A stretch of DNA of 64,000 nucleotides from Lachnospiraceae bacterium (GTDB taxonomy: Bacteria > Bacillota > Clostridia > Lachnospirales > Lachnospiraceae), in NCBI GenBank assembly GCA_015258065.1, contig JABZIZ010000003.1, positions 76,649 to 140,648 of the forward strand, written 5' to 3'. Both the position numbers and the translations under genes were made by a program. The notes under the pieces are model-generated. The model was not told where the DNA came from, did not search any database, and saw only the letters and a list, made by a program, of their open reading frames with translations. Below are positions 2,979-41,205 of the stretch, piece after piece. Positions within the stretch are counted from its first letter, which is position 1; each line of letters starts with the position of its first letter.

Positions 2979-3789
2979 CCAGATTCACCACCGGAATCGC
3001 TTCCATTAAATTTTTCGTATACGTTTCCTTTGGAGACCGAAAGATGTCCGCAGTTCTCCCCTCTTCCACAATCCTTCCCCTCTGCATGACGATCACACGC
3101 TCGCAAAGCTGTGCTACAAGGCTCAGGTCATGCGAAATGAACAGGATTGCCGTTCCTCTCTTTTGATGGATCCTTTGCAACAGAAGAAGAATCTGTGCCT
3201 GGATGGTAACATCCAGTGCCGTTGTAGGTTCATCCGCAATTAAAATTTGAGGCTCACCGATCATCGCCGCAGCAATCATCACTCGCTGGCGCATTCCGCC
3301 CGAAAGCTCATGGGGATACATCCGGTAAATTCTTTCCACATCCTGTAACCCCGTTTTCTCCAGCAAAGAAAGTGCCCTTTTTTTACGCTCTCCTCTGGAA
3401 AGTTCCTTATGATGAATCCGCAGACTCTCCTCCACCTGTACTCCGATTTTAAGCAACGGGTTAAGAGAGGTCATCGGTTCTTGAAAGATCATGGAAATTT
3501 CGTTTCCCTGAAACGTCCGCAGCTTCTTTCTGCTACAGGTTAAAAGGTTCTCTCCTGCGAACAGGATTTCTCCCTCCCGTTTCATCAAACCTCGTCTGTT
3601 TAACAGTCCCGCAATGGCAAGCGCACTCATGCTCTTGCCGGAGCCTGACTCCCCCACGATGCCGACCACCTCCCCCGGATACAGAAGGAGATGAAAATCT
3701 TCCACCGCCGTCTCCGGTCTTGCATGATCAAAAAATTCAATATGTAAATTTTTTACTTCTAAAAGAGGTTGCTTCGTCATTTGCTCCAC
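2971..3789 (-). CDS. Peptide/nickel ABC transporter ATP-binding protein (OppD/DppD-like)
   Basis: GESGSGKS, LSGGMRQRVMIAAA, ILIADEPTTALD. Overlaps the previous gene by 8 nt, typical of an operon. Confidence 0.85.
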   Translation of the reverse strand: MEQMTKQPLLEVKNLHIEFFDHARPETAVEDFHLLLYPGEVVGIVGESGSGKSMSALAIAGLLNRRGLMKREGEILFAGENLLTCSRKKLRTFQGNEISMIFQEPMTSLNPLLKIGVQVEESLRIHHKELSRGERKKRALSLLEKTGLQDVERIYRMYPHELSGGMRQRVMIAAAMIGEPQILIADEPTTALDVTIQAQILLLLQRIHQKRGTAILFISHDLSLVAQLCERVIVMQRGRIVEEGRTADIFRSPKETYTKNLMEAIPVVNLDD

Positions 3790-4628
3790 ATTCCTTCCCT
3801 GGCGGATGCGGAAATACCTTCCCCGAGAAAAGAAAACCCAAGGACCATCAAAATCAGCACAACGCCAGGGGCGATGACGTAAAGAGGTATCGACAGCAAA
3901 TACGACTGTGCATCCGAGAGCATCTGCCCAAGCGACGCCCTCGGCGGCTGTGCACCGATCCCCAAAAAACTCAGTCCCGCCTCCGCTAAAACCGCATTAT
4001 TAAAGCCGATCATCAGAGAGGACATCAGAGTCGCAGAGGCATTCGGCAACATGTGCACAAAGAGGATCCGAAGGGTCGGTACCCTCTCCAACCTGGCGAA
4101 TGCGATATAATCTTCTTTCGCAATTTTCTTAAACTCGCTTCTCACAATCCGCGAAAAGCTCGGTATAAAGGCGATTCCCAGTGCAAACGCCACCTGAAAC
4201 GTCCCCGTTCCAAACAGAGAAACAAAGACCAGCGCCAGCAAAAGAGAGGGAAAAGCAAAAAGCGCATCCATCAGACGCATCAGCGTCTCATCCAGCCAAC
4301 CACCCAGATATCCGCAAAAAGCACCAATGAGTGTGCCTACTCCTGCACCAATCGTTACGGTCAGGATGGCGATCAGGAAGGTGATCCGGCTTCCATAGAG
4401 AACACGGCAAAAGATATCTCTGCCAAACTTATCCGTTCCCATCCAGTGACGCAACGATATCCCCTGATGCTTCTCCATGATATTCATTGCGGTCGGGTCA
4501 TACGGCATATAAAAAAAACTGACCAGCACGAACAGCGCCAATATTCCTGTAATCAGGGCTCCTATCCATAGATAGGGATTGATCTTTTGATTCTTACGAA
4601 ACATTTTCACTTTCAAAATATCCCTCAA
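3777..4628 (-). CDS. ABC transporter permease (OppC/DppC-like)
   Basis: Polytopic membrane protein with an EAA-like motif (ASLGQMLSDAQSY) and the N-terminal region typical of OppC. Confidence 0.85.
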   Translation of the reverse strand: MRDILKVKMFRKNQKINPYLWIGALITGILALFVLVSFFYMPYDPTAMNIMEKHQGISLRHWMGTDKFGRDIFCRVLYGSRITFLIAILTVTIGAGVGTLIGAFCGYLGGWLDETLMRLMDALFAFPSLLLALVFVSLFGTGTFQVAFALGIAFIPSFSRIVRSEFKKIAKEDYIAFARLERVPTLRILFVHMLPNASATLMSSLMIGFNNAVLAEAGLSFLGIGAQPPRASLGQMLSDAQSYLLSIPLYVIAPGVVLILMVLGFSFLGEGISASAREGMWSK

Positions 4629-5566: not shown

Positions 5567-7116
5567 GATGCCGGTTTAATCCTAGCAATATCTTGTGCAT
5601 AGAGCGGAAAAAAAGTGTATCCCGTAAATTTTTTATTCAGCGCCACATAGGACGGCAAATCCTGTAAATATACATTCGCCGCCTCATCAGAGAGGATGGT
5701 CTCACACTTTTTAAAGTAGGATGTACGCTCCTGCTCTTGTACCGCCGATTCCGCCTTTTGATAGGTTTCATCATAGGAATCGGAATGGAAATTGATAAAA
5801 TTATTCGGTGCACTTGAAACAAAACGCGACAACAGGGAGGAAGCCGATAAAGTGGAAGCATCCACTCCTATGACAGTTGCTTCATACTTCCGATGATTAT
5901 AGACGTCCTCCAGCCAACTGTTCCATTCCACTTCCTGGATATCAGCCTTGATACCCACCTCTTTCAGCTCCTGTGCAATCACCTGTGCTGTTTCGATATG
6001 CTGGTCATAGTTGGAAGCAACGGTAATGGTAAAAGAAAACCCGTTCGGATAACCCGCCTGCGCCAGCAGGCTCTTCGCCTTTTCCGGATCATGCGGATAT
6101 TTGTTTGCCAGTTCCGGAATAAAATATTTGCGAAAAGACGGGTACATACTGGAGCCAATGGGACTTCCCTTCCCGTTGGAAACAAAATCCATGATCTGTT
6201 TCACATCCACCGCATAGCACAGCGCCTGCCTCACCTTCTTGTCTTGAAAAGGCTTGACCGCATTGTTTAAATAGAGGGCCTGAACCAGATTCATGGTTCC
6301 CTCATAGATCTGAAATTGATCCGATAACTGACCAACCTGCTCCGGTGTCAGTCTGGCAAAGAGATCGACGCTGCCCGCTTCCATGTCCATGACAAGGGAA
6401 TCTGCATCCGACTCAATCTTCCAGGTCAAATTTCGAATCGAGGCTGCATGTGTCGGATCCCAATAATCGTCAAACTTTTTCATCACGATTTTTTCCTGAG
6501 GGGATCGGGAAACAAATTGATAAGGACCCGTTCCAATCGGTTGTTTATCCAGTTCCTGGTCCTTCTTCGGTACAATGGCTGCCGTACAGTTGGTAATGAA
6601 ATCCGCATCCGGTTGCTTTAAAACAAGTTCAATATGCCGATTGTCTGGCATCTTCACTTCTTTTACATTAGAAAAAGCCGATACCAACGGTTTCCCCGTT
6701 TTCGTACCGGCACATCTTTCTAAAGAATATTTCACATCCTCTGCCGTTACATTACTCCCATCATGGAATTTCACTCCGTCCCGTAAGGTAAACAAAATGG
6801 TTTTTGCATCTTTCGAGACCGTCCACGCACTGGCAACAGCAGGTTTCAAATCACCGTTTTCATCTGGTTTCACGAGCCCTTCAAAAACATTGAAAAGCAC
6901 TTCTCTTGTTCCTGCCGCCTGCGAAAGATGGGGGTCAAGACTGTCCAAATCCTGAAGAATTCCTACGGTGATGGAAGAAGCATCTGCCTTATCGCCCGAA
7001 TCCTGATGTTTTGATGAAATCGTCTCCTGCTCCGAAGACGAGCCGCATCCATTCAGTGCAATAGCCAGTGTCGTGAACATGGTCAGCAGAAGCATTCGAT
7101 ACGCTGGTTTCCTCAT
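5563..7116 (-). CDS. ABC transporter substrate-binding lipoprotein, solute-binding family 5 (OppA/DppA/NikA-like)
   Basis: Signal peptide and lipobox (LAIALNGCGSS). Start moved to the ATG at 7114-7116, which is preceded by the strong SD AAGGAGG. The longer 7155 start would read through that SD. Confidence 0.85.
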   Translation of the reverse strand: MRKPAYRMLLLTMFTTLAIALNGCGSSSEQETISSKHQDSGDKADASSITVGILQDLDSLDPHLSQAAGTREVLFNVFEGLVKPDENGDLKPAVASAWTVSKDAKTILFTLRDGVKFHDGSNVTAEDVKYSLERCAGTKTGKPLVSAFSNVKEVKMPDNRHIELVLKQPDADFITNCTAAIVPKKDQELDKQPIGTGPYQFVSRSPQEKIVMKKFDDYWDPTHAASIRNLTWKIESDADSLVMDMEAGSVDLFARLTPEQVGQLSDQFQIYEGTMNLVQALYLNNAVKPFQDKKVRQALCYAVDVKQIMDFVSNGKGSPIGSSMYPSFRKYFIPELANKYPHDPEKAKSLLAQAGYPNGFSFTITVASNYDQHIETAQVIAQELKEVGIKADIQEVEWNSWLEDVYNHRKYEATVIGVDASTLSASSLLSRFVSSAPNNFINFHSDSYDETYQKAESAVQEQERTSYFKKCETILSDEAANVYLQDLPSYVALNKKFTGYTFFPLYAQDIARIKPAS

Positions 7117-7175
7117 GTTACGATCCTCCTTATGTGTGTGATATGAAGTTTTCAAGTAATCATCATTTACAATGA

Positions 7176-32513: not shown

Positions 32514-34019
32514 TTACTGCTTTTGCTGCGCTTGTTGGTTTTCTTGTAGAATCTCGTGAATCAGTACCCTCTCATCCATCGGGTACTTAACCCCTCGTAT
32601 CTCCTGATAGTCCTCGTGTCCTTTGCCCGCCAAAATAATAATATCGCCTCTCTCCCCCTGCTCCATCGCATAACGAATGGCTTCCTTGCGGTCCGGAATT
32701 TCCACATAGTGTCCGTCTGTTTTCTGAATACCCGTCTCAATATCACGGATGATCTCCATGGGGTCCTCGAACCTGGGATTGTCCGATGTAATAATGGTTA
32801 AATCCGCCAGCTTTCCGCTCACTTCTCCCATCTCGAACCGTCTTTCTCTGGAACGATTGCCGCCACAACCAAATAAACAAATCAGACGATTGGGTCTGTA
32901 ATACCGAAGCGTCGTCAAGAGGCTATGCAGCGCCATGGCATTGTGCGCATAATCAATCATCAGGGTATAATCATCCGAGACTTTAACCATCTCAATTCTG
33001 CCACGCACCCGAACCTTTTTGAGCGCCTCTTCCATCTCCTCTACCCAGCACCCCATCCGATGCGCCACCGCAATGGCACATAACGCATTATAGACGCTGA
33101 ACTTTCCCGGCATGGCAATCTCCGCATGCATGTTCACGATGCCTTTCGTATCGAAGTAGACGCCAAGTTCGCCGGGCTTGTGCATATATGCAAGAGCCTC
33201 CGCCTTTAAATCCGCCCCGTCCCCCAGTCCGAAGGTCGTCAAGTCGCAGGTATGTCCTTCCAGAATCTGAGGCAGATGCTCGTCGTCTGCGTTTACAATG
33301 CCATGCTTGCACTGCTGAAACAAAAGTCCCTTACAATGCATATACTCAGCAAAATCTTTGTGCTCATTCGGACCGATATGATCCGGCTCAATGTTCGTAA
33401 AAATCCCCATGTCAAACAGGAAGCCCTGTGTTCTGTGCATCATCAGCGCCTGAGAAGACACTTCCATCACCACTGCCTTCATTCCCGCATCCGCCATCCT
33501 TCTAAAATCCCTCTGCAAGCTAAGGGATTCCGGAGTGGTATTGCTGGCAGGAAAATGCTCTTCCCCAATGATCATCTCAATGGTTCCGATCAGGCCCGTT
33601 TTGATTCCGGCATTCTCCAGCATATTTTTGACAAGATAGGTGGTGGTCGTCTTTCCCTTGGTTCCGGTAATCCCGATCGTCGTCAGTTCCTTGGCCGGAT
33701 GAGAATAGAAGGCCGCTGCAATAAAGGCCATTGCATAACGGGTATCCTTCACACGAATCACGACCGTCTGCGTGTTCTTTGGAATCTCCACCTCCTCTTC
33801 TACCACGATGGCAGCCGCCTTCCTGGCAAAAGCCTCGAAAGCCTTCGTATGGCCATCGAAATTGCTTCCCCGAATGCAGAGGAACAGGCAACCCTCCTGC
33901 AACTTTCTGGAATCGTTGACCAGTTCCTTCACTTCTGTCTGCATAGCAGATACGCCTTTGTCATCTCCGCCATTTACGATCTCATAGGAAATTTCTTTGA
34001 ACAGCTCTTCCAGTTTCAT
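32514..34019 (-). CDS. murE: UDP-N-acetylmuramoyl-L-alanyl-D-glutamate--2,6-diaminopimelate ligase
   Basis: Mur ligase with GTKGKTTTT and the MurE-specific DNPR motif (DNPRFEDP). Confidence 0.85.
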   Translation of the reverse strand: MKLEELFKEISYEIVNGGDDKGVSAMQTEVKELVNDSRKLQEGCLFLCIRGSNFDGHTKAFEAFARKAAAIVVEEEVEIPKNTQTVVIRVKDTRYAMAFIAAAFYSHPAKELTTIGITGTKGKTTTTYLVKNMLENAGIKTGLIGTIEMIIGEEHFPASNTTPESLSLQRDFRRMADAGMKAVVMEVSSQALMMHRTQGFLFDMGIFTNIEPDHIGPNEHKDFAEYMHCKGLLFQQCKHGIVNADDEHLPQILEGHTCDLTTFGLGDGADLKAEALAYMHKPGELGVYFDTKGIVNMHAEIAMPGKFSVYNALCAIAVAHRMGCWVEEMEEALKKVRVRGRIEMVKVSDDYTLMIDYAHNAMALHSLLTTLRYYRPNRLICLFGCGGNRSRERRFEMGEVSGKLADLTIITSDNPRFEDPMEIIRDIETGIQKTDGHYVEIPDRKEAIRYAMEQGERGDIIILAGKGHEDYQEIRGVKYPMDERVLIHEILQENQQAQQKQ

Positions 34020-34032
34020 TCGTACTCCTCTC

Positions 34033-35850
34033 TTATCCGATTACCTTGTAGTCTTCCATCACCAGTTGAAGACTCTGCCGATTCCCCCATTCGTTCACCT
34101 GTGGATAATAGGCGATCGCAATCTCAAGAACCTTCTCCTCCTGCTCTTTTGTTTTGCAAAGGGGGGACAAAGCGCTTCTTCTCCCGTATAGAGCACAAAG
34201 AGCCGACTCTCCAAAATGCTTCTTTAAAAAGTCATCAAAGCAATCCACCTCCTTAAAACAGAGCAGATCATACCTTCTTCCCGTCTCATCTGTCACCTGA
34301 TATTTACCGACATTTCCCTGTTTCCCCAGCCGCATGCCATGAAGAAGGCGAATCTTTCTGGTGGCAAACAGGGGTTGTTTATTTCCATTCCCATAGGGAG
34401 CCAGCGCCTCCCACTCACGAATCAGCGGGATGGATAAGACAGAAGGCGGAAGTTCCATATCCAAATGCAGGACTTCCTCCAGATCGTCCTTCGTCAGGAG
34501 AGACGCATCATTTAATCTTTTTCTTAGATCTGCAATCCGGTCTTCCTTCATCGAAAAACCAGCCGCCATCGGATGTCCGCCAAATTTGGTAAACAGGTCT
34601 TTTACTGCGGATAAGGCTTCGAACATATTATAAGAAGGAATGGATCTTCCACTTCCCTTCACCCCATCTTCCGACGCCGTAATCACAAGCGTTGGACGAT
34701 GGCTAAATTCCCTGATCCTACCCGCTACGATCCCTGCAATGGATTCATGCAGATGGGGGAGGTAAATCACCAGGATGTCCGGCAGGCTTCCCTCTTTCTC
34801 TTTCTTCATCTCCTCAAGCACTTCTTTGGCCTGCGCAACGCCTTCTCTGGTCAACTCCTTGCGGCTGTCATTTAAAGCCTTTAGTTCATTGGCAAGCTGC
34901 AGGGCTACTTCCTTATTATTTGCACGAAGCAGGTGCAGCCCCCGTTGTGCAAAATCCAACCTCCCTGTAGCGTTCAAACAGGGACCAAGAACAAATCCAA
35001 GGTGATAGGTGCTAATCTTGCTTTCTGAAAGACCGTTCACGCGAACCAGCGCTTCCAGTCCAAAACCTGTGGTCTTATTTGCGAAGCAGCTCAGTCCCCT
35101 CTTAACGATGATTCGATTTTCATCTAAGAGCGGCATGACATCACAGACCGTTGCCAAAGCGGCGAAGGGATAGAGCTTATCCATTTTCGCTTCCTCTTCC
35201 CTTCCCTCTTGGTGTAGAAGCACCTGCATCCACTTAAAGGCAACCACCGCTCCGCAAATATCATGAAAAGGATAGCTGCTGTCCGCCCGTTTGGGATTTA
35301 CCACCGCATCCGCCTCCGGAAGCAGATCCTCTCCGGAACCCTCCTTTGGCACATCATGATGATCGCTCACAATGACCGTCATCCCAACTTCTTTGGCGTG
35401 TTTTACCTGATCCCGTGCGGCGATACCGTTGTCACAGGTCAAAATGGTGTCCACGCCGTCTTTTTTTGCCTGATCCACCAACAGCGTACTGATCCCATAT
35501 CCGTCCCGTATACGATGTGGGAGTACCACATCCACCTCTGCCTGCAGACCGTTCAGAACTTTCCATAAAATATAGGAAGAGCAAATGCCGTCCACATCAT
35601 AATCTCCGATAATGCGAATCTTTTTTTTCTCCCGCAACTTATCCTGCAGAATGGAGACTGCACGCTCCACATCCGGGAGCAGAAAAGGATCCCGCAGACC
35701 CCCTTCCTCGCAGTTCAAATAAGCTGCGATCTCACTTTCCTCCACCAGTCCTCTGTTTCGCAGAAGCCTGGCGGTAATCGGTGAGAGATGGAACGTCTGT
35801 GCGATCCTGTTAAAATCTGCCTTCTTTGCGGAGATCATCCACTTAGACAT
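34033..35850 (-). CDS. recJ: Single-stranded-DNA-specific exonuclease RecJ
   Basis: DHH motifs (GDYDVDG, SDHH), a DHHA1 domain (GGHPMAAG), and an OB-fold C-terminus. Confidence 0.9.
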   Translation of the reverse strand: MSKWMISAKKADFNRIAQTFHLSPITARLLRNRGLVEESEIAAYLNCEEGGLRDPFLLPDVERAVSILQDKLREKKKIRIIGDYDVDGICSSYILWKVLNGLQAEVDVVLPHRIRDGYGISTLLVDQAKKDGVDTILTCDNGIAARDQVKHAKEVGMTVIVSDHHDVPKEGSGEDLLPEADAVVNPKRADSSYPFHDICGAVVAFKWMQVLLHQEGREEEAKMDKLYPFAALATVCDVMPLLDENRIIVKRGLSCFANKTTGFGLEALVRVNGLSESKISTYHLGFVLGPCLNATGRLDFAQRGLHLLRANNKEVALQLANELKALNDSRKELTREGVAQAKEVLEEMKKEKEGSLPDILVIYLPHLHESIAGIVAGRIREFSHRPTLVITASEDGVKGSGRSIPSYNMFEALSAVKDLFTKFGGHPMAAGFSMKEDRIADLRKRLNDASLLTKDDLEEVLHLDMELPPSVLSIPLIREWEALAPYGNGNKQPLFATRKIRLLHGMRLGKQGNVGKYQVTDETGRRYDLLCFKEVDCFDDFLKKHFGESALCALYGRRSALSPLCKTKEQEEKVLEIAIAYYPQVNEWGNRQSLQLVMEDYKVIG

Positions 35851-38074
35851 GAAGTTTTTTGTCCTTCTTTTTCATGTCATACCAAAGCGGAGAGGCGATG
35901 AAAATAGATGAATAAGTTCCACAGATGATGCCTACCATGAGGGGAAGAGCAAAATTGCGAATATCCGTCACGCCAAAAATAAAGAGGGATAGTACCATCA
36001 GGAAGGTAGTTAAGGAAGTGAATAAACTTCTGGACATCGTCTGTGTCACACTCGTGTTGATGAGCTCCTCCTTATTCAGCTTCCCGCGCGCTTTATTTTC
36101 ACGAATACGGTCAAAGGTCACGATGGTATCGTTAATCGAGTAACCGACAATCGTCAATACACTTGCAATGAACGTATTTCCCACTTCAATCCTGGTGACG
36201 ACATAGCAAAGGGTCACGATGACGGCATCATGAGCCAGTGCAATAATGGCAGCAATACCAAACTGCATATCGCTAAAGCGGATTCTCACGTAGAACAGGA
36301 TACAAACCAGAGCAATCAGAACCGATAAGATGGCATCTCTTGACATTTCATCAGAGATCGTTGCCGAAATGGTCTCTGCAGCAATTTTATCCTCCGGTAC
36401 CTTGAACTGATCCTGTAGAGCAGTACTCATCGCCTTTCGCTGTTCTACCGAGAGAGGTATGGTCTTGAAAATGACTTCCTTGGTTCCCGAAACCGTCTGG
36501 GTCTGTACAGAGGAAACACCTGTTGCCTTTCTGATTGCGGGAACTACGTTGGCGTCCAGATCCTGCAACGTATGATTTTCGTTAAAAGTTACTGTCGTTG
36601 ATGTTCCACCCACAAAATCAAGAGAGAAGTTCATCGGCCCTTTTCCAGATGCTGTATTGAAAAGCATCACGATCACGCCGATTGCCATGATTCCGAGGGA
36701 AATCGCATAATAAATCTTGCGGTTCTTAATAATTGAAAGATATTTGATTTGTTCCGGTTTCCCGTACAACTTCTCTCCCTGCAGTCCGATTCCGTACAGG
36801 CAGGCAGAAACCGCCCTTGTAACGAGAAGCGCCGAGAACAGGGAAACCACCGTACCTAAGGTCAAGGTATAAGCAAACCCGCGGATGGTACCTGTTCCGA
36901 AGATCATTAAGACAACTGCTGCGATCAGAGTGGTAATATTTCCATCTAAAATGGCCGAGAGTGCCGCATGATATCCGGATTTCATGGCTTCCTTTACACT
37001 CTTACCTGCCTGCATCTCTTCTCTGATTCTTGCAAAAACAAGGACGTTTGCATCCACCGCCATGCCGATTGAGAGAATAATACCTGCAATGCCGGGCAGA
37101 GTCAAAGTGATCTCCAGCCCGTCCAGCAGGATGACGACCAGGCAGCAATAGAAAGCCAGCGCAATGTCTGCGGCAAGGCCCAGGATCCGGTAAACCAATA
37201 GCATGAAGAGTACCACCATGGCAAAACCGACCAGCGCCGCAATCAGGCTGGAGTGAATCGCCTCTACCCCCAGCTGCGCACCCACCACGTTGGAGCGAAG
37301 CTCTTTTAACTGCAGACTGAGACCGCCGATTCGGATGGTGCTTGCCAGATTCTGCGCCTCTTCCACGGTAAAGGCACCGGTGATCTGCGCTCTTCCGTTT
37401 TTGATTTCACTGTTCACCTTCGGAACCGAGACAAACTTCCCATCATAATAGATGGCGATCGTCTCTCCTTTTTCAAAAGCTCTCTTCGTGGCCTTCGCAA
37501 ACTTCTTCCTGCCGGCGTCCGTCAGCTGTAAGTCAACCATGTATTCTTTCGCACCGGTAGAAGAATCGGTCTGGGCGCCTGCCTGCGCCGTTTTGACATC
37601 GGTTCCTTTCATCACCACGGAACCTTCCATGTCCAGCGCAGCAATATTTTTGGTGAGCTTATACTCGCCGCCCTGAGAAGTATAATTTTCTTCTCCCTTG
37701 GAATTCGTCTGTGCGATGAAATACAGATTTCCCGGCTGCCCCAGTTCTGTAAGAATCTTATCCGCATCATTCACTCCGGGAATCTCAATGCTGATCCGGT
37801 TGGATCCCTCTTTGTAAACCTGCGCCTCCGTACTGTACTGACTGACTCTCTGCTGAAGCTTGTATACGGTATCGCTCATATCCTCGGCAGACGGATTTTT
37901 ATCTCCGACGACCTGATAAGTGATACTGACCCCGCCGGCCAGATCCAACCCGAGATTGATCGAATGAACCGATCCATCCTTCGTTTTACCGATTCCGAAC
38001 CAGGCAATGTACCCCAGACCCAAAAGAGATGCCAGGAGCAAAATCAATGCAACCCATGATTTTGTGCGTTTCAT
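35843..38074 (-). CDS. secDF: Fused protein-export membrane protein SecDF
   Basis: 743 aa with two RND-like six-helix modules and periplasmic domains. Confidence 0.9.
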   Translation of the reverse strand: MKRTKSWVALILLLASLLGLGYIAWFGIGKTKDGSVHSINLGLDLAGGVSITYQVVGDKNPSAEDMSDTVYKLQQRVSQYSTEAQVYKEGSNRISIEIPGVNDADKILTELGQPGNLYFIAQTNSKGEENYTSQGGEYKLTKNIAALDMEGSVVMKGTDVKTAQAGAQTDSSTGAKEYMVDLQLTDAGRKKFAKATKRAFEKGETIAIYYDGKFVSVPKVNSEIKNGRAQITGAFTVEEAQNLASTIRIGGLSLQLKELRSNVVGAQLGVEAIHSSLIAALVGFAMVVLFMLLVYRILGLAADIALAFYCCLVVILLDGLEITLTLPGIAGIILSIGMAVDANVLVFARIREEMQAGKSVKEAMKSGYHAALSAILDGNITTLIAAVVLMIFGTGTIRGFAYTLTLGTVVSLFSALLVTRAVSACLYGIGLQGEKLYGKPEQIKYLSIIKNRKIYYAISLGIMAIGVIVMLFNTASGKGPMNFSLDFVGGTSTTVTFNENHTLQDLDANVVPAIRKATGVSSVQTQTVSGTKEVIFKTIPLSVEQRKAMSTALQDQFKVPEDKIAAETISATISDEMSRDAILSVLIALVCILFYVRIRFSDMQFGIAAIIALAHDAVIVTLCYVVTRIEVGNTFIASVLTIVGYSINDTIVTFDRIRENKARGKLNKEELINTSVTQTMSRSLFTSLTTFLMVLSLFIFGVTDIRNFALPLMVGIICGTYSSIFIASPLWYDMKKKDKKLHV

Positions 38075-38101
38075 CTTGTCTCTTCCCTTCCTTTTCTCAC
38101 C

Positions 38102-39604
38102 TTATTCCGATTCATCCGCCTTTTCATTTGGAGAAGAATCTTCCTCTGCAAGCGCCGCCTGAATCATAATGGCGCATTCCACCCGCTTGCGCTGCAGCTC
38201 ACAGCCAATCGAATAGGTTCCGTTAATATCTCCGGTAAAGTTATAAGCATTGGCTGCACATCCCCCACTGCAATAATATCGTGCAAAACAGTTCCTGCAT
38301 TCCTTCTTCGTGTATACGTTGCAAGCCTTGAATTCACCAACCAGATCCGTCCGGTTCACGCCATGAAACACATCTCCCAAAATGAACTTCTCATTGCCGA
38401 CAAACTGATGGCAGGGATAGAGCTCCCCCCACGGCGTTACCCCCAGGTACTCGCAACCGCTTCCACAGCCGGAAAGCCTTTTGGCCACACAGGGACCTCC
38501 GGTCAAATCAATGTCGAAGTGGAAGAAATGGAAATCTCTGCCTTCTCTGTGGCGTTTCAGCAAAAACTGCGCCAACTGATCGTACTCCTCAAACAGAGCG
38601 GGCAAATCCTCTTCACGAAGGGCATAATCGTCCTCCGGCTTCGCCACCACCGGTTCCACCGAAATCTGCTGAAAGCCAAGGTTTGCCAGCTCTTCCACAT
38701 CCTTGGAAAAGTCCAGATTATATCTGGTAAAGGTTCCCCTGACAAAATAATTCTGTTGATTTCTGCTGTTTGCCGCCTTTAGGAATTTGGGAACAATGGT
38801 GTCATAACTGGATCCTCGTCTTCCCGGAAAAGGACGCATCCGGTCATGCACTTCTCTTCTGCCGTCTATGCTGAGCACGAGGTTTGCCATCTCCCGATTG
38901 GCGAATTCCAGAATCTCATCATTCAAAAGAACCCCGTTTGTGGTCAACGTAAAGCGGAACCTTTTATCATTTTTCTTTTCCAGCTCCCTGCCATAAGCCA
39001 CTATATTCTTAACCACTTCCCAGTTCATCAGGGGTTCCCCGCCAAAGAAATCCACTTCCAGATTTCTACGGTTTCCGGAATGATCCATCAGGAAATCGAG
39101 GGCTGCCTTGCCGACTTCCAGTGACATCAGTCCTCTCTTCCCCCCGTGGTATTGCCCTTCATCCGCAAAGCAATAACTGCACCTGAGATTACAATCATGC
39201 GCTATATTCAGACAGAGCGCCTTTACAACGGTTTCTCTGTCCTGAAACCCGTCCACGTATTCCTCATAAATGTCTTCTGAAAAAAGAAGCTCCTGCGCAA
39301 CCAGCTCCTCAATCTCAGACAAAGCTTCTTCCAGCGTCTTTCTATCATATTTCTCCTGTAAAGCGGCATCTGAAAAAACAGCCTTGCGCATGGCAGAAAA
39401 ATCTCCATCACAGCGCCCGCCTTCCTTGTCACCTGCTTTACAGCTTTCTTTCTCACACCCGGAAGAATGCATGCGGCACTTCTTCTCATAGGCCTTTTCA
39501 CAAACGGGAATCATATCGTAAACCGCACGATCTACCACATGCACGGAACCGCTGTTTACATCCAGGACGATATGATAACCGCCATTTTTATAACAATGAA
39601 CCAT
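38102..39604 (-). CDS. scfB: SCIFF radical-SAM maturase ScfB (SPASM-domain ranthipeptide synthase)
   Basis: N-terminus MVHCYKNGGYHIVLDVNSG is typical of ScfB. Radical-SAM cluster motif CNLRCSYC, C-terminal Cys-rich SPASM region, and position directly downstream of the SCIFF precursor. Confidence 0.85.
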   Translation of the reverse strand: MVHCYKNGGYHIVLDVNSGSVHVVDRAVYDMIPVCEKAYEKKCRMHSSGCEKESCKAGDKEGGRCDGDFSAMRKAVFSDAALQEKYDRKTLEEALSEIEELVAQELLFSEDIYEEYVDGFQDRETVVKALCLNIAHDCNLRCSYCFADEGQYHGGKRGLMSLEVGKAALDFLMDHSGNRRNLEVDFFGGEPLMNWEVVKNIVAYGRELEKKNDKRFRFTLTTNGVLLNDEILEFANREMANLVLSIDGRREVHDRMRPFPGRRGSSYDTIVPKFLKAANSRNQQNYFVRGTFTRYNLDFSKDVEELANLGFQQISVEPVVAKPEDDYALREEDLPALFEEYDQLAQFLLKRHREGRDFHFFHFDIDLTGGPCVAKRLSGCGSGCEYLGVTPWGELYPCHQFVGNEKFILGDVFHGVNRTDLVGEFKACNVYTKKECRNCFARYYCSGGCAANAYNFTGDINGTYSIGCELQRKRVECAIMIQAALAEEDSSPNEKADESE

Positions 39605-39651
39605 GAATCAAACCTTTTTCCAAACAAATTTCATCAACTTACCACATGAAA

Positions 39652-39681
39652 CAGGCAGCGGCATTTCCCGCCCGCTGCCTG
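39652..39681 (-). terminator. Attenuator or partial terminator hairpin between scfA and scfB
   Basis: 10-bp stem caggcagcgg / ccgctgcctg followed by TTTCATG on the minus strand, as is common after RiPP precursor genes. Confidence 0.4.
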
Positions 39682-39705
39682 CAAAACAACCCACCGAGCG
39701 AACAC

Positions 39706-39852
39706 TTATTTCTTGAGCTGTTCGCATTTCTGGTTGCCAACGGTGCAAGAGGTCTTGCAAGCCGACTGGCAGGAAGTCTGGCACTCACCGCAACCACCCT
39801 TCTTCATACTTTCCTTCAAATTCCTGGTCGCCAGAGTTCTGATTCTCTTCAT
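39706..39852 (-). CDS. scfA: SCIFF ranthipeptide precursor ScfA (six Cys in forty-five), 48 aa
   Basis: Hand translation: MKRIRTLATRNLKESMKKGGCGECQTSCQSACKTSCTVGNQKCEQLKK. SD AAGGAGAA lies 8 nt upstream. Too short to appear in the ORF track. Confidence 0.9.
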   Translation of the reverse strand: MKRIRTLATRNLKESMKKGGCGECQTSCQSACKTSCTVGNQKCEQLKK

Positions 39853-39905
39853 TCTCTCTGTTCTCCTTTGCTATAATCAATAAACACCCGCAAAAAACAC
39901 AACTC

Positions 39906-39933
39906 AGTATAGCATGATTCATTTACTTGTGAA
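39906..39933 (-). promoter_or_regulatory. Putative sigma-A promoter for scfA, overlapping the 3' end of hlyC
   Basis: On the minus strand: TTCACA, a 16-nt spacer, then TATACT, about 50 nt upstream of the scfA ATG. Confidence 0.35.
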
Positions 39934-41205
39934 AGTGCCTGATGGATTTTCATTCGATGCCGCAGGAAGTTCCAGCAACACCTTTATAATGCGATGTTGT
40001 CTGAGACCCCGGCAGGTCAGAATCGTTCCATCTGCAAGCGTAATGCTCTCCCTGTTCTGCGGAAGACGATCCAGATGTCCGATCATGAGCCCCCCAATCG
40101 TATCGTAATCTTCCGAAGAGAGGGAAGTGTGTAAGGCATCATTGACATCATCCAGCTTCATCGTACCTTCAATCAGATATTTGCCTTCTCCCACCTGATT
40201 GATCAATCCCTCTTCATCCGAATCGTATTCATCACGGATTTCTCCCACAATCTCCTCCAGCAAATCCTCCATGGTAATCATGCCGGCACAGGCTCCATAC
40301 TCGCTAAGGACAAAAGCCACATTGACCGTCTTTTCCCTCATTTCCATCATTAAGTTGGCTGTTTTCTTAAACTCATAGGTGTAATAAGCATCACGAAGAT
40401 GGTCTTTAACGTGAAAAGGCTGATTCGCTTCTATGAAAAGCATGTCCTTGATGTTCAACATCCCGATCATATTGTCCGGATGATCCTCATAAACAGGAAG
40501 GCGGGTATACATCTCCTCTCTAAAAATCCGCATCACTTCTTCCAACGTGGCGTCTGTAGAAACGCAGGTCATATCGATCCTCGGAATCATGATGTCCTTC
40601 GCCAGTGCATCTCCGAAGTCAAACACATTGTTGATCATGTCTTTTTCTTCGCTCTTAATCACGCCGTCTTCGTGGGACACGTTCACGTAGGTTCGCAGCT
40701 CTTTTTCCGTAATGGTCTGATGCCCTGCGTCCCGGATCCCGAGCACTTTTAATACAAGACCGGAGAGCACATTGATCACAAAAATGAGCGGTGTCAACAT
40801 CTGCATTAAAAACCAAATGGCAGAAGCATATCGAAGAGCCATCTTTTCCGCTGTCGCCTTCGCCGCCGTTTTCGGTGTAATCTCTCCAAAAATAAGCACA
40901 AGAATGGTAAGGATTCCGGTGCCGAGGCCGATCGCAAAAGAGCCAAAAACTTTGGTGACAATGACCGTAGCAAGGGATGAAGCCGAAAGGTTGACCACAT
41001 TATTCCCAATGAGAATCGCTGTCAGCATCTTGGGATAGTTGGCATCTATTTTCAGAACTCTTGCCGCTCTGGTATTCCCTTCCGAAGCCAGCGTCTGGAT
41101 CCTTACCTTATTCACCGTACTCATTGCCGTCTCCGCCGATGAAAAAAAAGCCGACAAAGAAAGCAGTGTAATGAGAATCACAAATTGAATGATGATTTCC
41201 GTCAT
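39919..41205 (-). CDS. HlyC/CorC-family transporter (CNNM/DUF21 + CBS pair + CorC_HlyC)
   Basis: N-terminal DUF21 transmembrane domain, CBS pair, and a C-terminal transporter-associated domain. 428 aa. Confidence 0.85.
   Translation of the reverse strand: MTEIIIQFVILITLLSLSAFFSSAETAMSTVNKVRIQTLASEGNTRAARVLKIDANYPKMLTAILIGNNVVNLSASSLATVIVTKVFGSFAIGLGTGILTILVLIFGEITPKTAAKATAEKMALRYASAIWFLMQMLTPLIFVINVLSGLVLKVLGIRDAGHQTITEKELRTYVNVSHEDGVIKSEEKDMINNVFDFGDALAKDIMIPRIDMTCVSTDATLEEVMRIFREEMYTRLPVYEDHPDNMIGMLNIKDMLFIEANQPFHVKDHLRDAYYTYEFKKTANLMMEMREKTVNVAFVLSEYGACAGMITMEDLLEEIVGEIRDEYDSDEEGLINQVGEGKYLIEGTMKLDDVNDALHTSLSSEDYDTIGGLMIGHLDRLPQNRESITLADGTILTCRGLRQHRIIKVLLELPAASNENPSGTFTSK

Follow-up and report, generated by a model that had tools for sequence, protein, structure and literature searches.

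Does the DNA studied here carry a complete SCIFF ranthipeptide system with a precursor gene that automated annotation misses, and does any part of it go beyond what is known of this family? SCIFF, a family curated since 2011, occurs in most Clostridia. The window (the whole stretch of DNA that was analysed, 64,000 nucleotides) very probably contains a standard two-gene SCIFF ranthipeptide system amid housekeeping genes, with chemistry and attenuation that we infer. The locus is a textbook, ordinary and already annotated SCIFF pair, confirmed in every detail, and the conserved hairpin between scfA and scfB is its only detail that is mildly new. The pair and its associated elements are as follows (positions are those of the window).

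39906–39933, minus strand: promoter-like site of scfA, TTCACA-16-TATACT, 10/12 match
39863–39867, minus strand: Shine-Dalgarno sequence AGGAG of scfA, 10 nt to the ATG, read from the sequence
39706–39852, minus strand: scfA, 48-aa SCIFF precursor with six Cys, matching TIGR03973 and PF13165
39652–39681, minus strand: intercistronic RNA hairpin, stem CAGGCAGCGG/CCGCUGCCUG, tail UUUCAUGU
38102–39604, minus strand: scfB, 500-aa radical-SAM/SPASM SCIFF maturase, matching TIGR03974 and CteB
39362–39505, minus strand: Cys-rich insertion in ScfB, residues 34–81, about 35 aa longer than CteB

The small minus-strand ORF that the first-pass annotation had placed at 39706–39852 translates exactly to MKRIRTLATRNLKESMKKGGCGECQTSCQSACKTSCTVGNQKCEQLKK. 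This peptide has cysteines at positions 21, 24, 28, 32, 36 and 43 and threonines at 34 and 37, and it contains the six-Cys pattern of SCIFF peptides (GGCGECQTSCQSACKTSC..C); its leader (residues ~1–20) ends in an invariant GG, and the core starts from Cys21. We ran the proposed search against TIGR03973, which gave 87.3 bits (cut-off 50, covering model positions 1–43 of 43), and the peptide also matches PF13165 with 88.2 bits (cut-off 27, 1–44 of 44). Residues 19–41 match the near-invariant core consensus of 80 loci, and protein-level conservation of the SCIFF frame extends to 589 confirmed loci. Using the peptide to search the PDB, we found it in register with the CteA 1–21 fragment of 5WGG; the two leaders align 1–21 to 1–21, and Cys32, Thr34 and Thr37 have equal numbering in CteA and ScfA, while the C-terminal tail of ScfA (..KCEQLKK) differs. 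Beyond the CteA fragment, the PDB search returned solely a non-significant match to the ferredoxin-like QueG (E=0.067). We note this weak likeness of the ScfA core to a ferredoxin-type Cys motif as a mere curiosity. In other taxa, there are SCIFFs without Cys32, the sole experimentally mapped donor.

The same DNA can be read in other frames. A plus-strand ORF at 39646–39876, which had been called spurious, is indeed in the ORF list (76 aa) and has no significant family match. Five public metagenome contigs whose DNA is identical here have, as their recorded genes, a 45-aa and a 58-aa ORF that are both out of frame. We see next to no chance that the DNA at 39608–39922 encodes the plus-strand 76-aa ORF or the minus-strand 45- and 58-aa ORFs and not a SCIFF peptide: all three ORFs exist and the latter two are actual calls in public data, but none has a significant Pfam match (best E-value 0.14), whereas the SCIFF frame reaches 87–88 bits on two curated models and is conserved in the 589 loci, with a conserved Shine-Dalgarno sequence. 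The alternative frames, without family support, are effectively refuted. The expectation that automated annotation misses scfA is borne out for these five contigs, which carry the wrong frames, but not for HMM-guided calls, which name the peptide. Exact copies of both proteins are already in NCBI (ScfA as 'six-cysteine peptide SCIFF' and ScfB as SCIFF maturase, from Lachnospiraceae MAGs), so the locus adds no new family member. NCBI assigns these identical proteins to Lachnospiraceae bacterium MAGs, and the host is thus within Clostridia.

The expression signals described for scfA are present as well. The Shine-Dalgarno sequence AGGAG is found at 39867–39863, and an SD-like motif occurs within −20..−4 of scfA in 80/80 related loci, although these 80 comparison loci are those with the most similar peptides, so that this and the other conservation figures are inflated and biased to Lachnospiraceae (the nearest loci are from Butyrivibrio, Acetatifactor and other Lachnospiraceae). 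The putative promoter consists of a −35 element TTCACA (39933–39928), a 16-nt spacer and a TG-extended −10 element TATACT (39911–39906), and it shares nucleotides with the final codons of the CNNM gene upstream. Sites scoring at least 10/12 upstream of scfA are found in 48 of the 80 related loci as compared to about 5% of shuffles, and several related loci have TTTACA-16-TATACT at equal distance from scfA.

scfB starts 101 nt downstream of scfA on the same strand, and it is found directly after scfA in 80/80 related loci. As the first-pass annotation had it, its product begins with MVHCYKNGGYHIVLDVNSG and contains CNLRCSYC. The suggested search of ScfB against TIGR03974 gave 728.3 bits (cut-off 425), with the model covered from position 1 at the N-terminus; the exception model NF040492 ('not_ScfB') gave 572.9 bits, under its cut-off of 855. 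The radical-SAM CX3CX2C motif (C138-N-L-R-C142-S-Y-C145; PF04055, 48.2 bits) and the SPASM cysteines (C372, C380, C398, C436, C439, C445, C449 and C468) show no variation across 117 homologues, all SPASM cysteines align to CteB, and residues 380–463 match TIGR04085 with 56.7 bits (cut-off 27). Among known systems, the closest comparison is CteA/CteB (thermocellin, Clostridium thermocellum, 5WGG/5WHY), with which ScfB aligns over residues 82–483 (E=1e-173 against 5WGG), including all cluster Cys. Tte1186a/Tte1186 of Caldanaerobacter subterraneus belongs to the same family and is likened here by reported positions (its Cys32-Thr37 positions are also in ScfA); Tte1186a was the first SCIFF characterised in vitro and is from another order of Clostridia than this host. 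PapA/PapB (freyrasin) and QhpD represent related radical-SAM/SPASM thioether-forming enzymes, and ScfB scores below the cut-offs of both the PapB model (267.7 bits, cut-off 340) and the QhpD-type model (246.9 bits, cut-off 453). The precursor of PapB is a different one and receives six Cys-X3-Asp S-C(beta) links (PMC8172795), and ScfA, unlike PapA, is without Cys-X3-Asp repeats. Judged by their sequences, scfA is a canonical SCIFF precursor gene and scfB encodes a canonical ScfB/CteB-type maturase with all cluster-binding Cys.

ScfB differs from CteB mainly in its N-terminal part. The AF2 model of ScfB (mean pLDDT 85.4) has strands at residues 2–7, 10–15 and 20–24 followed by helices, and the N-terminus aligns weakly to CteB 6–38 (E=0.12), the domain being interrupted by an insertion; we predict it to be an RRE-like domain. 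The insertion is a Cys-rich loop (residues 34–81 against CteB 39–51, with Cys35, 43, 50, 55 and 65) between helices 1 and 2 of this domain. In the homologue comparison it is found only in the species cluster of this ScfB and in one 90%-identical relative, and other ScfBs have a variable loop without Cys at this site. Residues 41–70 have pLDDT values of 44–64, to be read with the limit that the structure predictor works without metals, and the insertion is predicted to be disordered. A folded metal-binding module is an unsupported interpretation of this insertion, given that a single species cluster and one relative have it and that its pLDDT is low; in one cluster member, moreover, one of the Cys is replaced by Ser. 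We likewise considered Cys384 of ScfB (His in CteB; Thr, Cys or Ser among homologues) as a fourth ligand of auxiliary cluster I, and rejected it because the position is naturally variable among the 117 homologues (Thr in 73, Cys in 43, Ser in 1).

For the chemistry we rely on homologues. By analogy with CteA/CteB and Tte1186a/Tte1186, the predicted RRE-like N-terminal domain of ScfB would bind the ScfA leader (residues 1–20), and Cys21 of ScfA would ligate the open site of auxiliary cluster I, as in CteB, where the open site of the auxiliary cluster is filled by a peptidyl cysteine (PMC8326336, PMC8172795). The radical-SAM cluster would then cleave SAM to give a 5'-deoxyadenosyl radical, this radical would abstract H from a core threonine (Thr37 or Thr34) at its gamma-carbon, and the threonine gamma-carbon would be joined to the sulfur of Cys32 in an S-C(gamma) thioether. 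In CteA/Tte1186a-type homologues an S-C(gamma) linkage was found between Cys32 and Thr37 in vitro and between Cys32 and Thr34 in E. coli (PMC8326336, PMC8172795), and the literature is split on the acceptor (Thr37 vs Thr34) and on the number of cross-linked Cys, out of six, in the native product (PMC8326336). Mature ScfA may accordingly be expected to carry one or more Cys-to-carbon (non-alpha) thioether links.

The genes around the pair form a run on the minus strand (CNNM - scfA - scfB - secDF - recJ - murE), and the two that follow scfB are listed here as context.

35843–38074, minus strand: secDF (fused, 743 aa), begins 27 nt past the scfB stop
34033–35850, minus strand: recJ (605 aa), TIGR00644 458.8 bits vs cut-off 396.9

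The 27-nt gap between scfB and secDF and the 8-nt overlap of recJ with the end of secDF fit read-through co-transcription, and secDF is probably co-transcribed with scfB. SecDF is encoded on the same strand within 1 kb downstream of scfB in 53/71 related loci, and RecJ is found within 1 kb past SecDF in 25 of 47 loci. The SCIFF-secDF-recJ order, described in the first pass as a recurring arrangement, does recur in related loci; the linkage to secDF is a feature of loci of the Lachnospiraceae type and was absent from the more distant ones sampled.

The 10-bp-stem hairpin reported between scfA and scfB was recovered, with arms of 10 nt at 39652–39661 and 39672–39681 that are 100% complementary. 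It lies 24 nt past the scfA stop codon and 47 nt ahead of the scfB start, and its GCAGCG core begins 27 nt past the scfA stop. As RNA its stem lengthens to about 13 pairs, interrupted by a single bulge (dG −23 kcal/mol, z −3.7 vs shuffles), and only this local hairpin is significant: the whole 111-nt spacer folds no better than shuffles (z −0.86). A simple terminator scan of 37800–40300 returned no sites; this silence is uninformative for the hairpin because its perfect stem has a 10-nt loop, which exceeds the scan's loop limit of 8. The tail UUUCAUGU has 5 U in 8 and is a weak U-tract, 34/77 orthologous spacers have at least 5 T in the 9 nt past the stem, and clear U-runs are seen past many orthologous hairpins (e.g. 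L014, ...CGCUGCUUUUUUUUG).

Comparison across loci indicates that the structure is conserved. The median perfect stem in scfA-scfB spacers is 8 bp; it is 4.9 for shuffles and 5 for the scfB-secDF spacers used as controls. In 42/77 spacers the stem is matched by at most 1 in 100 shuffles. In about half of the related hairpins the stem has the same GCAGCG/CGCUGC core, flanked by pairs that covary; the invariance of this core was partly imposed by how the hairpin set was selected. Butyrivibrio proteoclasticus is one example of a cultured relative with a GCAGCG hairpin. In the hairpin alignment, 94.9% of the cells are paired, compensatory changes are found at 5 pairs, and 0/500 shuffles reach the covariation score; 28 cells are G-U/U-G, which become mismatches if read on the antisense strand. 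The core motif has one match in the window (0.03 expected), 34 of its 38 matches in 981 kb are inside scfA-scfB spacers, and it is about 800 times denser in these spacers than in the rest of the same loci. Covariance-model matches are all in scfA-scfB spacers, with sense scores above antisense scores. Rfam gave no match for the whole window (gathering thresholds) or for the spacer (E<=1), which leaves the hairpin outside the described RNA families, and the literature searched contained no description of a hairpin at SCIFF loci.

From its anatomy and the comparison, the hairpin is probably a leaky terminator or a 3'-end stabiliser. Acting in one or both of these ways, it would yield a short abundant scfA transcript, while part of transcription would read through into scfB-secDF-recJ, leaving precursor in excess over enzyme. 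Attenuator hairpins between precursor and maturase genes are known from RiPP/lantibiotic operons, and the arrangement here is similar: a stable hairpin follows a short precursor gene with its own promoter-like site and precedes a modification gene. Unlike these general attenuators, the SCIFF hairpin has a six-pair core that is invariant across many Lachnospiraceae. This raises the alternative that the hairpin is not a terminator but a sequence-specific recognition or processing element (an RNase cleavage site, a stabiliser or a regulatory-protein site), with a factor that would read the GCAGCG/CGCUGC core and tune SCIFF output vs scfB-secDF-recJ. We consider this alternative improbable. It would account for a core that is identical across genera in which ScfB is only about 60–65% identical and in which neither spacer length nor loop sequence is constant, for the concentration of the motif in scfA-scfB spacers, and for the weak U-tract of the window hairpin and the lack of an Rfam family. 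However, a GC-rich stem with a U-rich tail has the look of an ordinary intrinsic terminator, and many orthologues have strong U-runs. Loci beyond the clade have unrelated stems at the equivalent place, suggesting that sequence counts for less than structure and position; the L057 hairpin has its core altered by a compensatory pair (GCAGUG/CACUGC), and the invariance of the core is in part a selection effect. A leaky terminator or stabiliser is our preferred reading, and we hold it quite unlikely, more so than a recognition element as such, that the hairpin is an undescribed SCIFF-specific cis-regulatory RNA, read sequence-specifically by a protein or RNase and coupling SCIFF output to scfB-secDF-recJ. 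If that were true, it would hint at a physiological link of SCIFF to protein export, as opposed to a free-standing natural-product cluster.

As for the product, the first-pass annotation had stated that the mature peptide has no established function. The statement omitted a quorum-sensing or regulatory role that is proposed for SCIFF in solventogenic clostridia (Chen et al. 2020 via PMC8326336, PMC8102284). The best available proposal is that the product serves as a signal, intercellular or regulatory (quorum sensing). Family searches of the neighbourhood found no protease or exporter gene near scfA-scfB, which is awkward for a secreted signal and would suit a SCIFF product that is intracellular and housekeeping, e.g. 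a Cys-/metal-binding or redox peptide tied to export or the envelope. Such a role is also in line with the position of the pair amid essential housekeeping genes (with secDF next in most related loci), with the likeness of the core to a ferredoxin-type Cys motif (the QueG match, not significant) and with the wide distribution in Clostridia, which a review takes to argue against an antimicrobial role (PMC8326336). Against it, knock-outs in C. beijerinckii altered sporulation and agr expression, which was interpreted as quorum sensing (PMC8102284). Adjacency is no evidence of shared function, and the secDF linkage is absent in more distant loci. GG before the core is a typical leader-cleavage motif, and the invariant GG ahead of the ScfA core likewise speaks against a housekeeping role, which we regard as unlikely; the signal remains the proposal that we favour.

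The scfA-scfB pair itself adds nothing to the knowledge of the SCIFF family, and what the locus offers comes from its by-products (the mis-called precursor, the hairpin and the natural variants), which have modest practical value. Metagenome gene calls that replace a 48-aa RiPP precursor matter for precursor counts in such catalogues. The locus-specific hairpin provides a handle on the precursor-to-enzyme ratio and could help find scfA genes, and natural variants, i.e., the Cys-rich insertion in the putative leader-binding domain of ScfB and the SCIFFs without Cys32, could inform which cross-links matter.

The first-pass annotation had read this locus as a SCIFF precursor gene followed by its maturase gene, and both the observation and the interpretation are correct. 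The features of the locus, with positions in the window, are as follows:

39919-41205, minus strand: CNNM/CBS/CorC transporter-type gene, upstream of scfA, its last codons overlapping the scfA -35 hexamer
39933..39906, minus strand: promoter-like site of scfA, TTCACA-16-TATACT, 10/12 matches with a TG extension
39867-39863, minus strand: Shine-Dalgarno AGGAG, separated from the scfA ATG by 10 nt
39706-39852, minus strand: scfA, 48-residue ORF
39652-39661 / 39672-39681, minus strand: inverted repeat (hairpin arms of 10 nt, 100% complementary)
38102-39604, minus strand: scfB, 500-aa ORF starting MVHCYKNGGYHIVLDVNSG and containing CNLRCSYC
35843-38074, minus strand: fused secDF (743 aa), starting 27 nt past scfB
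34033-35850, minus strand: recJ, overlapping secDF by 8 nt (35843-35850)
32514-34019, downstream: murE, 13 nt after recJ

The translation of scfA is identical to the peptide proposed before, and has cysteines at positions 21, 24, 28, 32, 36 and 43. Using the profile search that the first-pass annotation had suggested as a check, we found that ScfA covers the whole of TIGR03973 ('six-cysteine ranthipeptide SCIFF') with 87.3 bits (cut-off 50), and it scores 88.2 bits against Pfam PF13165 (cut-off 27). ScfB, checked in the same way, scores 728.3 bits against TIGR03974 ('thioether cross-link-forming SCIFF peptide maturase'; cut-off 425) and 572.9 bits against NF040492, the exception model for ScfB-like orphan enzymes, which is below the cut-off of 855. 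Both proteins are already named in NCBI: the identical 48-aa sequence is 'six-cysteine peptide SCIFF [Lachnospiraceae bacterium]' (MBF0994103.1 and others; on 367 contigs), and the identical 500-aa sequence is 'thioether cross-link-forming SCIFF peptide maturase' (MBF0996733.1). The nearest solved structure to ScfB is CteB, the SCIFF maturase of Clostridium thermocellum (5WGG/5WHY; E = 1e-173, residues 82-483). In an alignment of 117 homologues, from which members of the window's own species cluster were left out, the radical-SAM cysteines C138/C142/C145 and the SPASM-region cysteines C372, C380, C398, C436, C439, C445, C449, C468 and C477 are invariant. ScfA residues 19-40 (39730-39795, minus strand; core GGCGECQTSCQSACKTSC) also resemble the ferredoxin-type cluster motif of epoxyqueuosine reductase (5D6S), but weakly and without significance (E=0.067).

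The prediction that the precursor would escape automated annotation holds only in part: NCBI's HMM-guided pipeline calls the SCIFF gene, but the gene calls on five metagenome contigs do not include it. All five public metagenome contigs that were fetched with identical scfB (L081-L085) also carry identical scfA DNA, and on 5/5 the SCIFF frame is absent from the recorded calls; two out-of-frame ORFs stand instead between the CNNM gene and scfB (3683-3997, corresponding to window 39608-39922, minus strand). The competing ORFs are:

39785-39922, minus strand: 45-aa ORF, recorded metagenome gene call, in another frame than SCIFF
39608-39784, minus strand: 58-aa ORF, recorded metagenome gene call, in another frame than SCIFF
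39646-39876, plus strand: 76-aa ORF across scfA, in the mechanical ORF list

The family search gave no support for the 45-aa and 58-aa ORFs and no significant match for the 76-aa ORF, which the first-pass annotation had called spurious.

For comparison, a species-representative scan (one genome per species) yielded at least 589 confirmed SCIFF loci, and the 80 with the most similar SCIFF peptides, mostly from Lachnospiraceae, were used in the comparative tests. The top peptide among the matches listed for these 80 loci is 89% identical, which means that this set does not include the species of the window. In these best 80 of at least 589 loci, scfA is always followed by scfB (80/80), and the core of the SCIFF alignment has no gaps. 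An SD-like motif precedes scfA in 80/80 loci. The promoter-like site, found here independently by a consensus scan, has counterparts: in 48/80 loci a site with at least 10/12 matches precedes scfA, a score that about 5% of shuffled sequences reach. It lies in most cases 30-60 nt before the ATG, and several loci have TTTACA-16-TATACT at the window's distance.

The neighbours of the SCIFF pair are housekeeping genes. Given the secDF/recJ overlap and murE only 13 nt on, the pair heads a closely packed essential-gene run; farther upstream of scfA are a phosphopantetheinyl transferase gene (opposite strand), an M24 aminopeptidase gene and thrC, and no protease or exporter gene was found among the neighbouring genes. 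In 71 loci scfB is complete and followed by 1.5 kb of sequence or more; 53 of them have SecDF within 1 kb downstream of scfB on the same strand (median gap 47 nt), and in 4 more RecJ takes its place. RecJ is found within 1 kb past SecDF in 25/47 loci. None of the more distant loci L052, L054, L056, L058, L060, L068 and L070 has SecDF near scfB, so the arrangement called recurring in the first-pass annotation recurs in a family-level clade only, not in SCIFF loci overall. In 35/80 loci the 7 kb upstream of scfA contain a CNNM/CBS/CorC-type gene, as a rule on the opposite strand; it is co-oriented with scfA in the window, in Butyrivibrio (L003-L005) and in a few others (L009, L017, L041, L078). 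The best sigma-70-like match of the region is inside scfB (TTGTCA-17-TATAAT, 11/12; 38717-38745, minus strand). It precedes secDF by about 640 nt and may be an internal secDF-recJ promoter or a chance match.

The hairpin between scfA and scfB, described before as having a 10-bp stem, has fully complementary arms and folds as RNA at -23 kcal/mol (z = -3.7 vs dinucleotide shuffles). Almost all scfA-scfB spacers (median 115 nt) contain a strong hairpin: the longest perfect stem has a median of 8 bp, compared with 4.9 for dinucleotide shuffles and 5 for the control spacers between scfB and secDF, and in 42/77 spacers the stem length is reached by at most 1/100 shuffles. A core GCAGCG-loop-CGCUGC is common to 35/77 spacers, including that of the window. 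We aligned 34 of these 35 and scored the five flanking pairs, which lie outside the selection criterion; all five show compensatory changes (e.g. pair 8-34: AU 27, GC 6, GU 1, none unpaired; pair 15-27: AU 19, GU 6, GC 5, UA 2, UG 1, one unpaired). Overall, 94.9% of cells are paired vs 87.0% in shuffles, and 0/500 shuffles attain the observed pairing or covariation score. The 28 wobble cells, which would be mismatches if read on the opposite strand, and the covariance model, which scores sense above antisense at every locus, point to a structure in scfA mRNA.

The motif is specific to the locus. It occurs once in the 64-kb window (0.03 expected), 34 of its 38 occurrences in the loci (981 kb) fall inside 10 kb of spacers, and every covariance-model match at E <= 1 in 1.04 Mb is in a spacer. 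These include L057 (737-781), outside the training set, in which the otherwise invariant core carries a compensatory pair (GCAGUG/CACUGC). Loci beyond the core-sharing clade have unrelated stems at the same position, often with clear U-runs; the tail in the window, UUUCAUGU, is moderately U-rich. The hairpin has no match in Rfam, and was not flagged by a simple terminator scan, whose loop limit excludes it. We infer that it is probably a leaky intrinsic terminator, a 3'-end stabiliser or both, which would keep the precursor mRNA more plentiful than the enzyme and let part of transcription run on into scfB-secDF-recJ.

ScfB of the window differs from the 451-position model in its length of 500 aa. 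Its residues 34-81 (39362-39505, minus strand) match CteB 39-51, giving an insertion of about 35 aa that holds five cysteines (VCEKAYEKKCRMHSSGCEKESCKAGDKEGGRCDGDF). Homologues have a cysteine-free loop of highly variable length at this site; the Cys-rich loop is limited to the window's species cluster (one member has Ser for one Cys) and one relative of 90% identity. In an AlphaFold2 model (mean pLDDT 85.4) the insertion lies in the N-terminal domain, flanked by its first long helix (26-47) and the helix that follows (70-78), and residues 41-70 are of low confidence (10-residue block means of pLDDT 44-64). We regard it as a flexible loop, specific to the lineage, in the predicted leader-binding domain.

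In vitro, CteB and Tte1186, the maturase of Caldanaerobacter subterraneus, each form one thioether from Cys32 to Thr37. When CteB was co-expressed with its precursor CteA in E. coli, Cys32 was joined to Thr34 instead, at the threonine gamma-carbon, the reason why SCIFF peptides were moved from sactipeptides to ranthipeptides; CteB has one auxiliary cluster with an open site that a peptidyl cysteine fills on substrate binding (PMC8326336, PMC8172795). The residues of this chemistry are all present in ScfA and ScfB of the window: the gapless core places Cys32, Thr34 and Thr37 at the same positions, and residues 1-21 of the CteA fragment co-crystallised with CteB align to ScfA 1-21. PMC8326336 and PMC8102284 list 'quorum sensing' as a proposed function of SCIFF, after Chen et al. 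2020; according to PMC8102284, disruption of the pair in C. beijerinckii lowered the expression of sporulation genes and raised that of agr. A variant SCIFF with Cys32 and Thr37 both replaced by Ser is encoded in L045 (scfA at about 2313-2456), L054 (665-808) and L052, L058 and L060 (each 7001-7144), with an extra Cys at leader position 13 that keeps the number at six. As Cys32 is the sole experimentally mapped donor, the mapped link is impossible in these five.

The locus is an ordinary, already annotated member of the well-known SCIFF family. Its only novelty lies in the hairpin, which is conserved and specific to the locus, in the wrong gene calls recorded over scfA in metagenome catalogues, and in two natural variants: the Cys-rich insertion of ScfB and the SCIFF peptides that lack Cys32.
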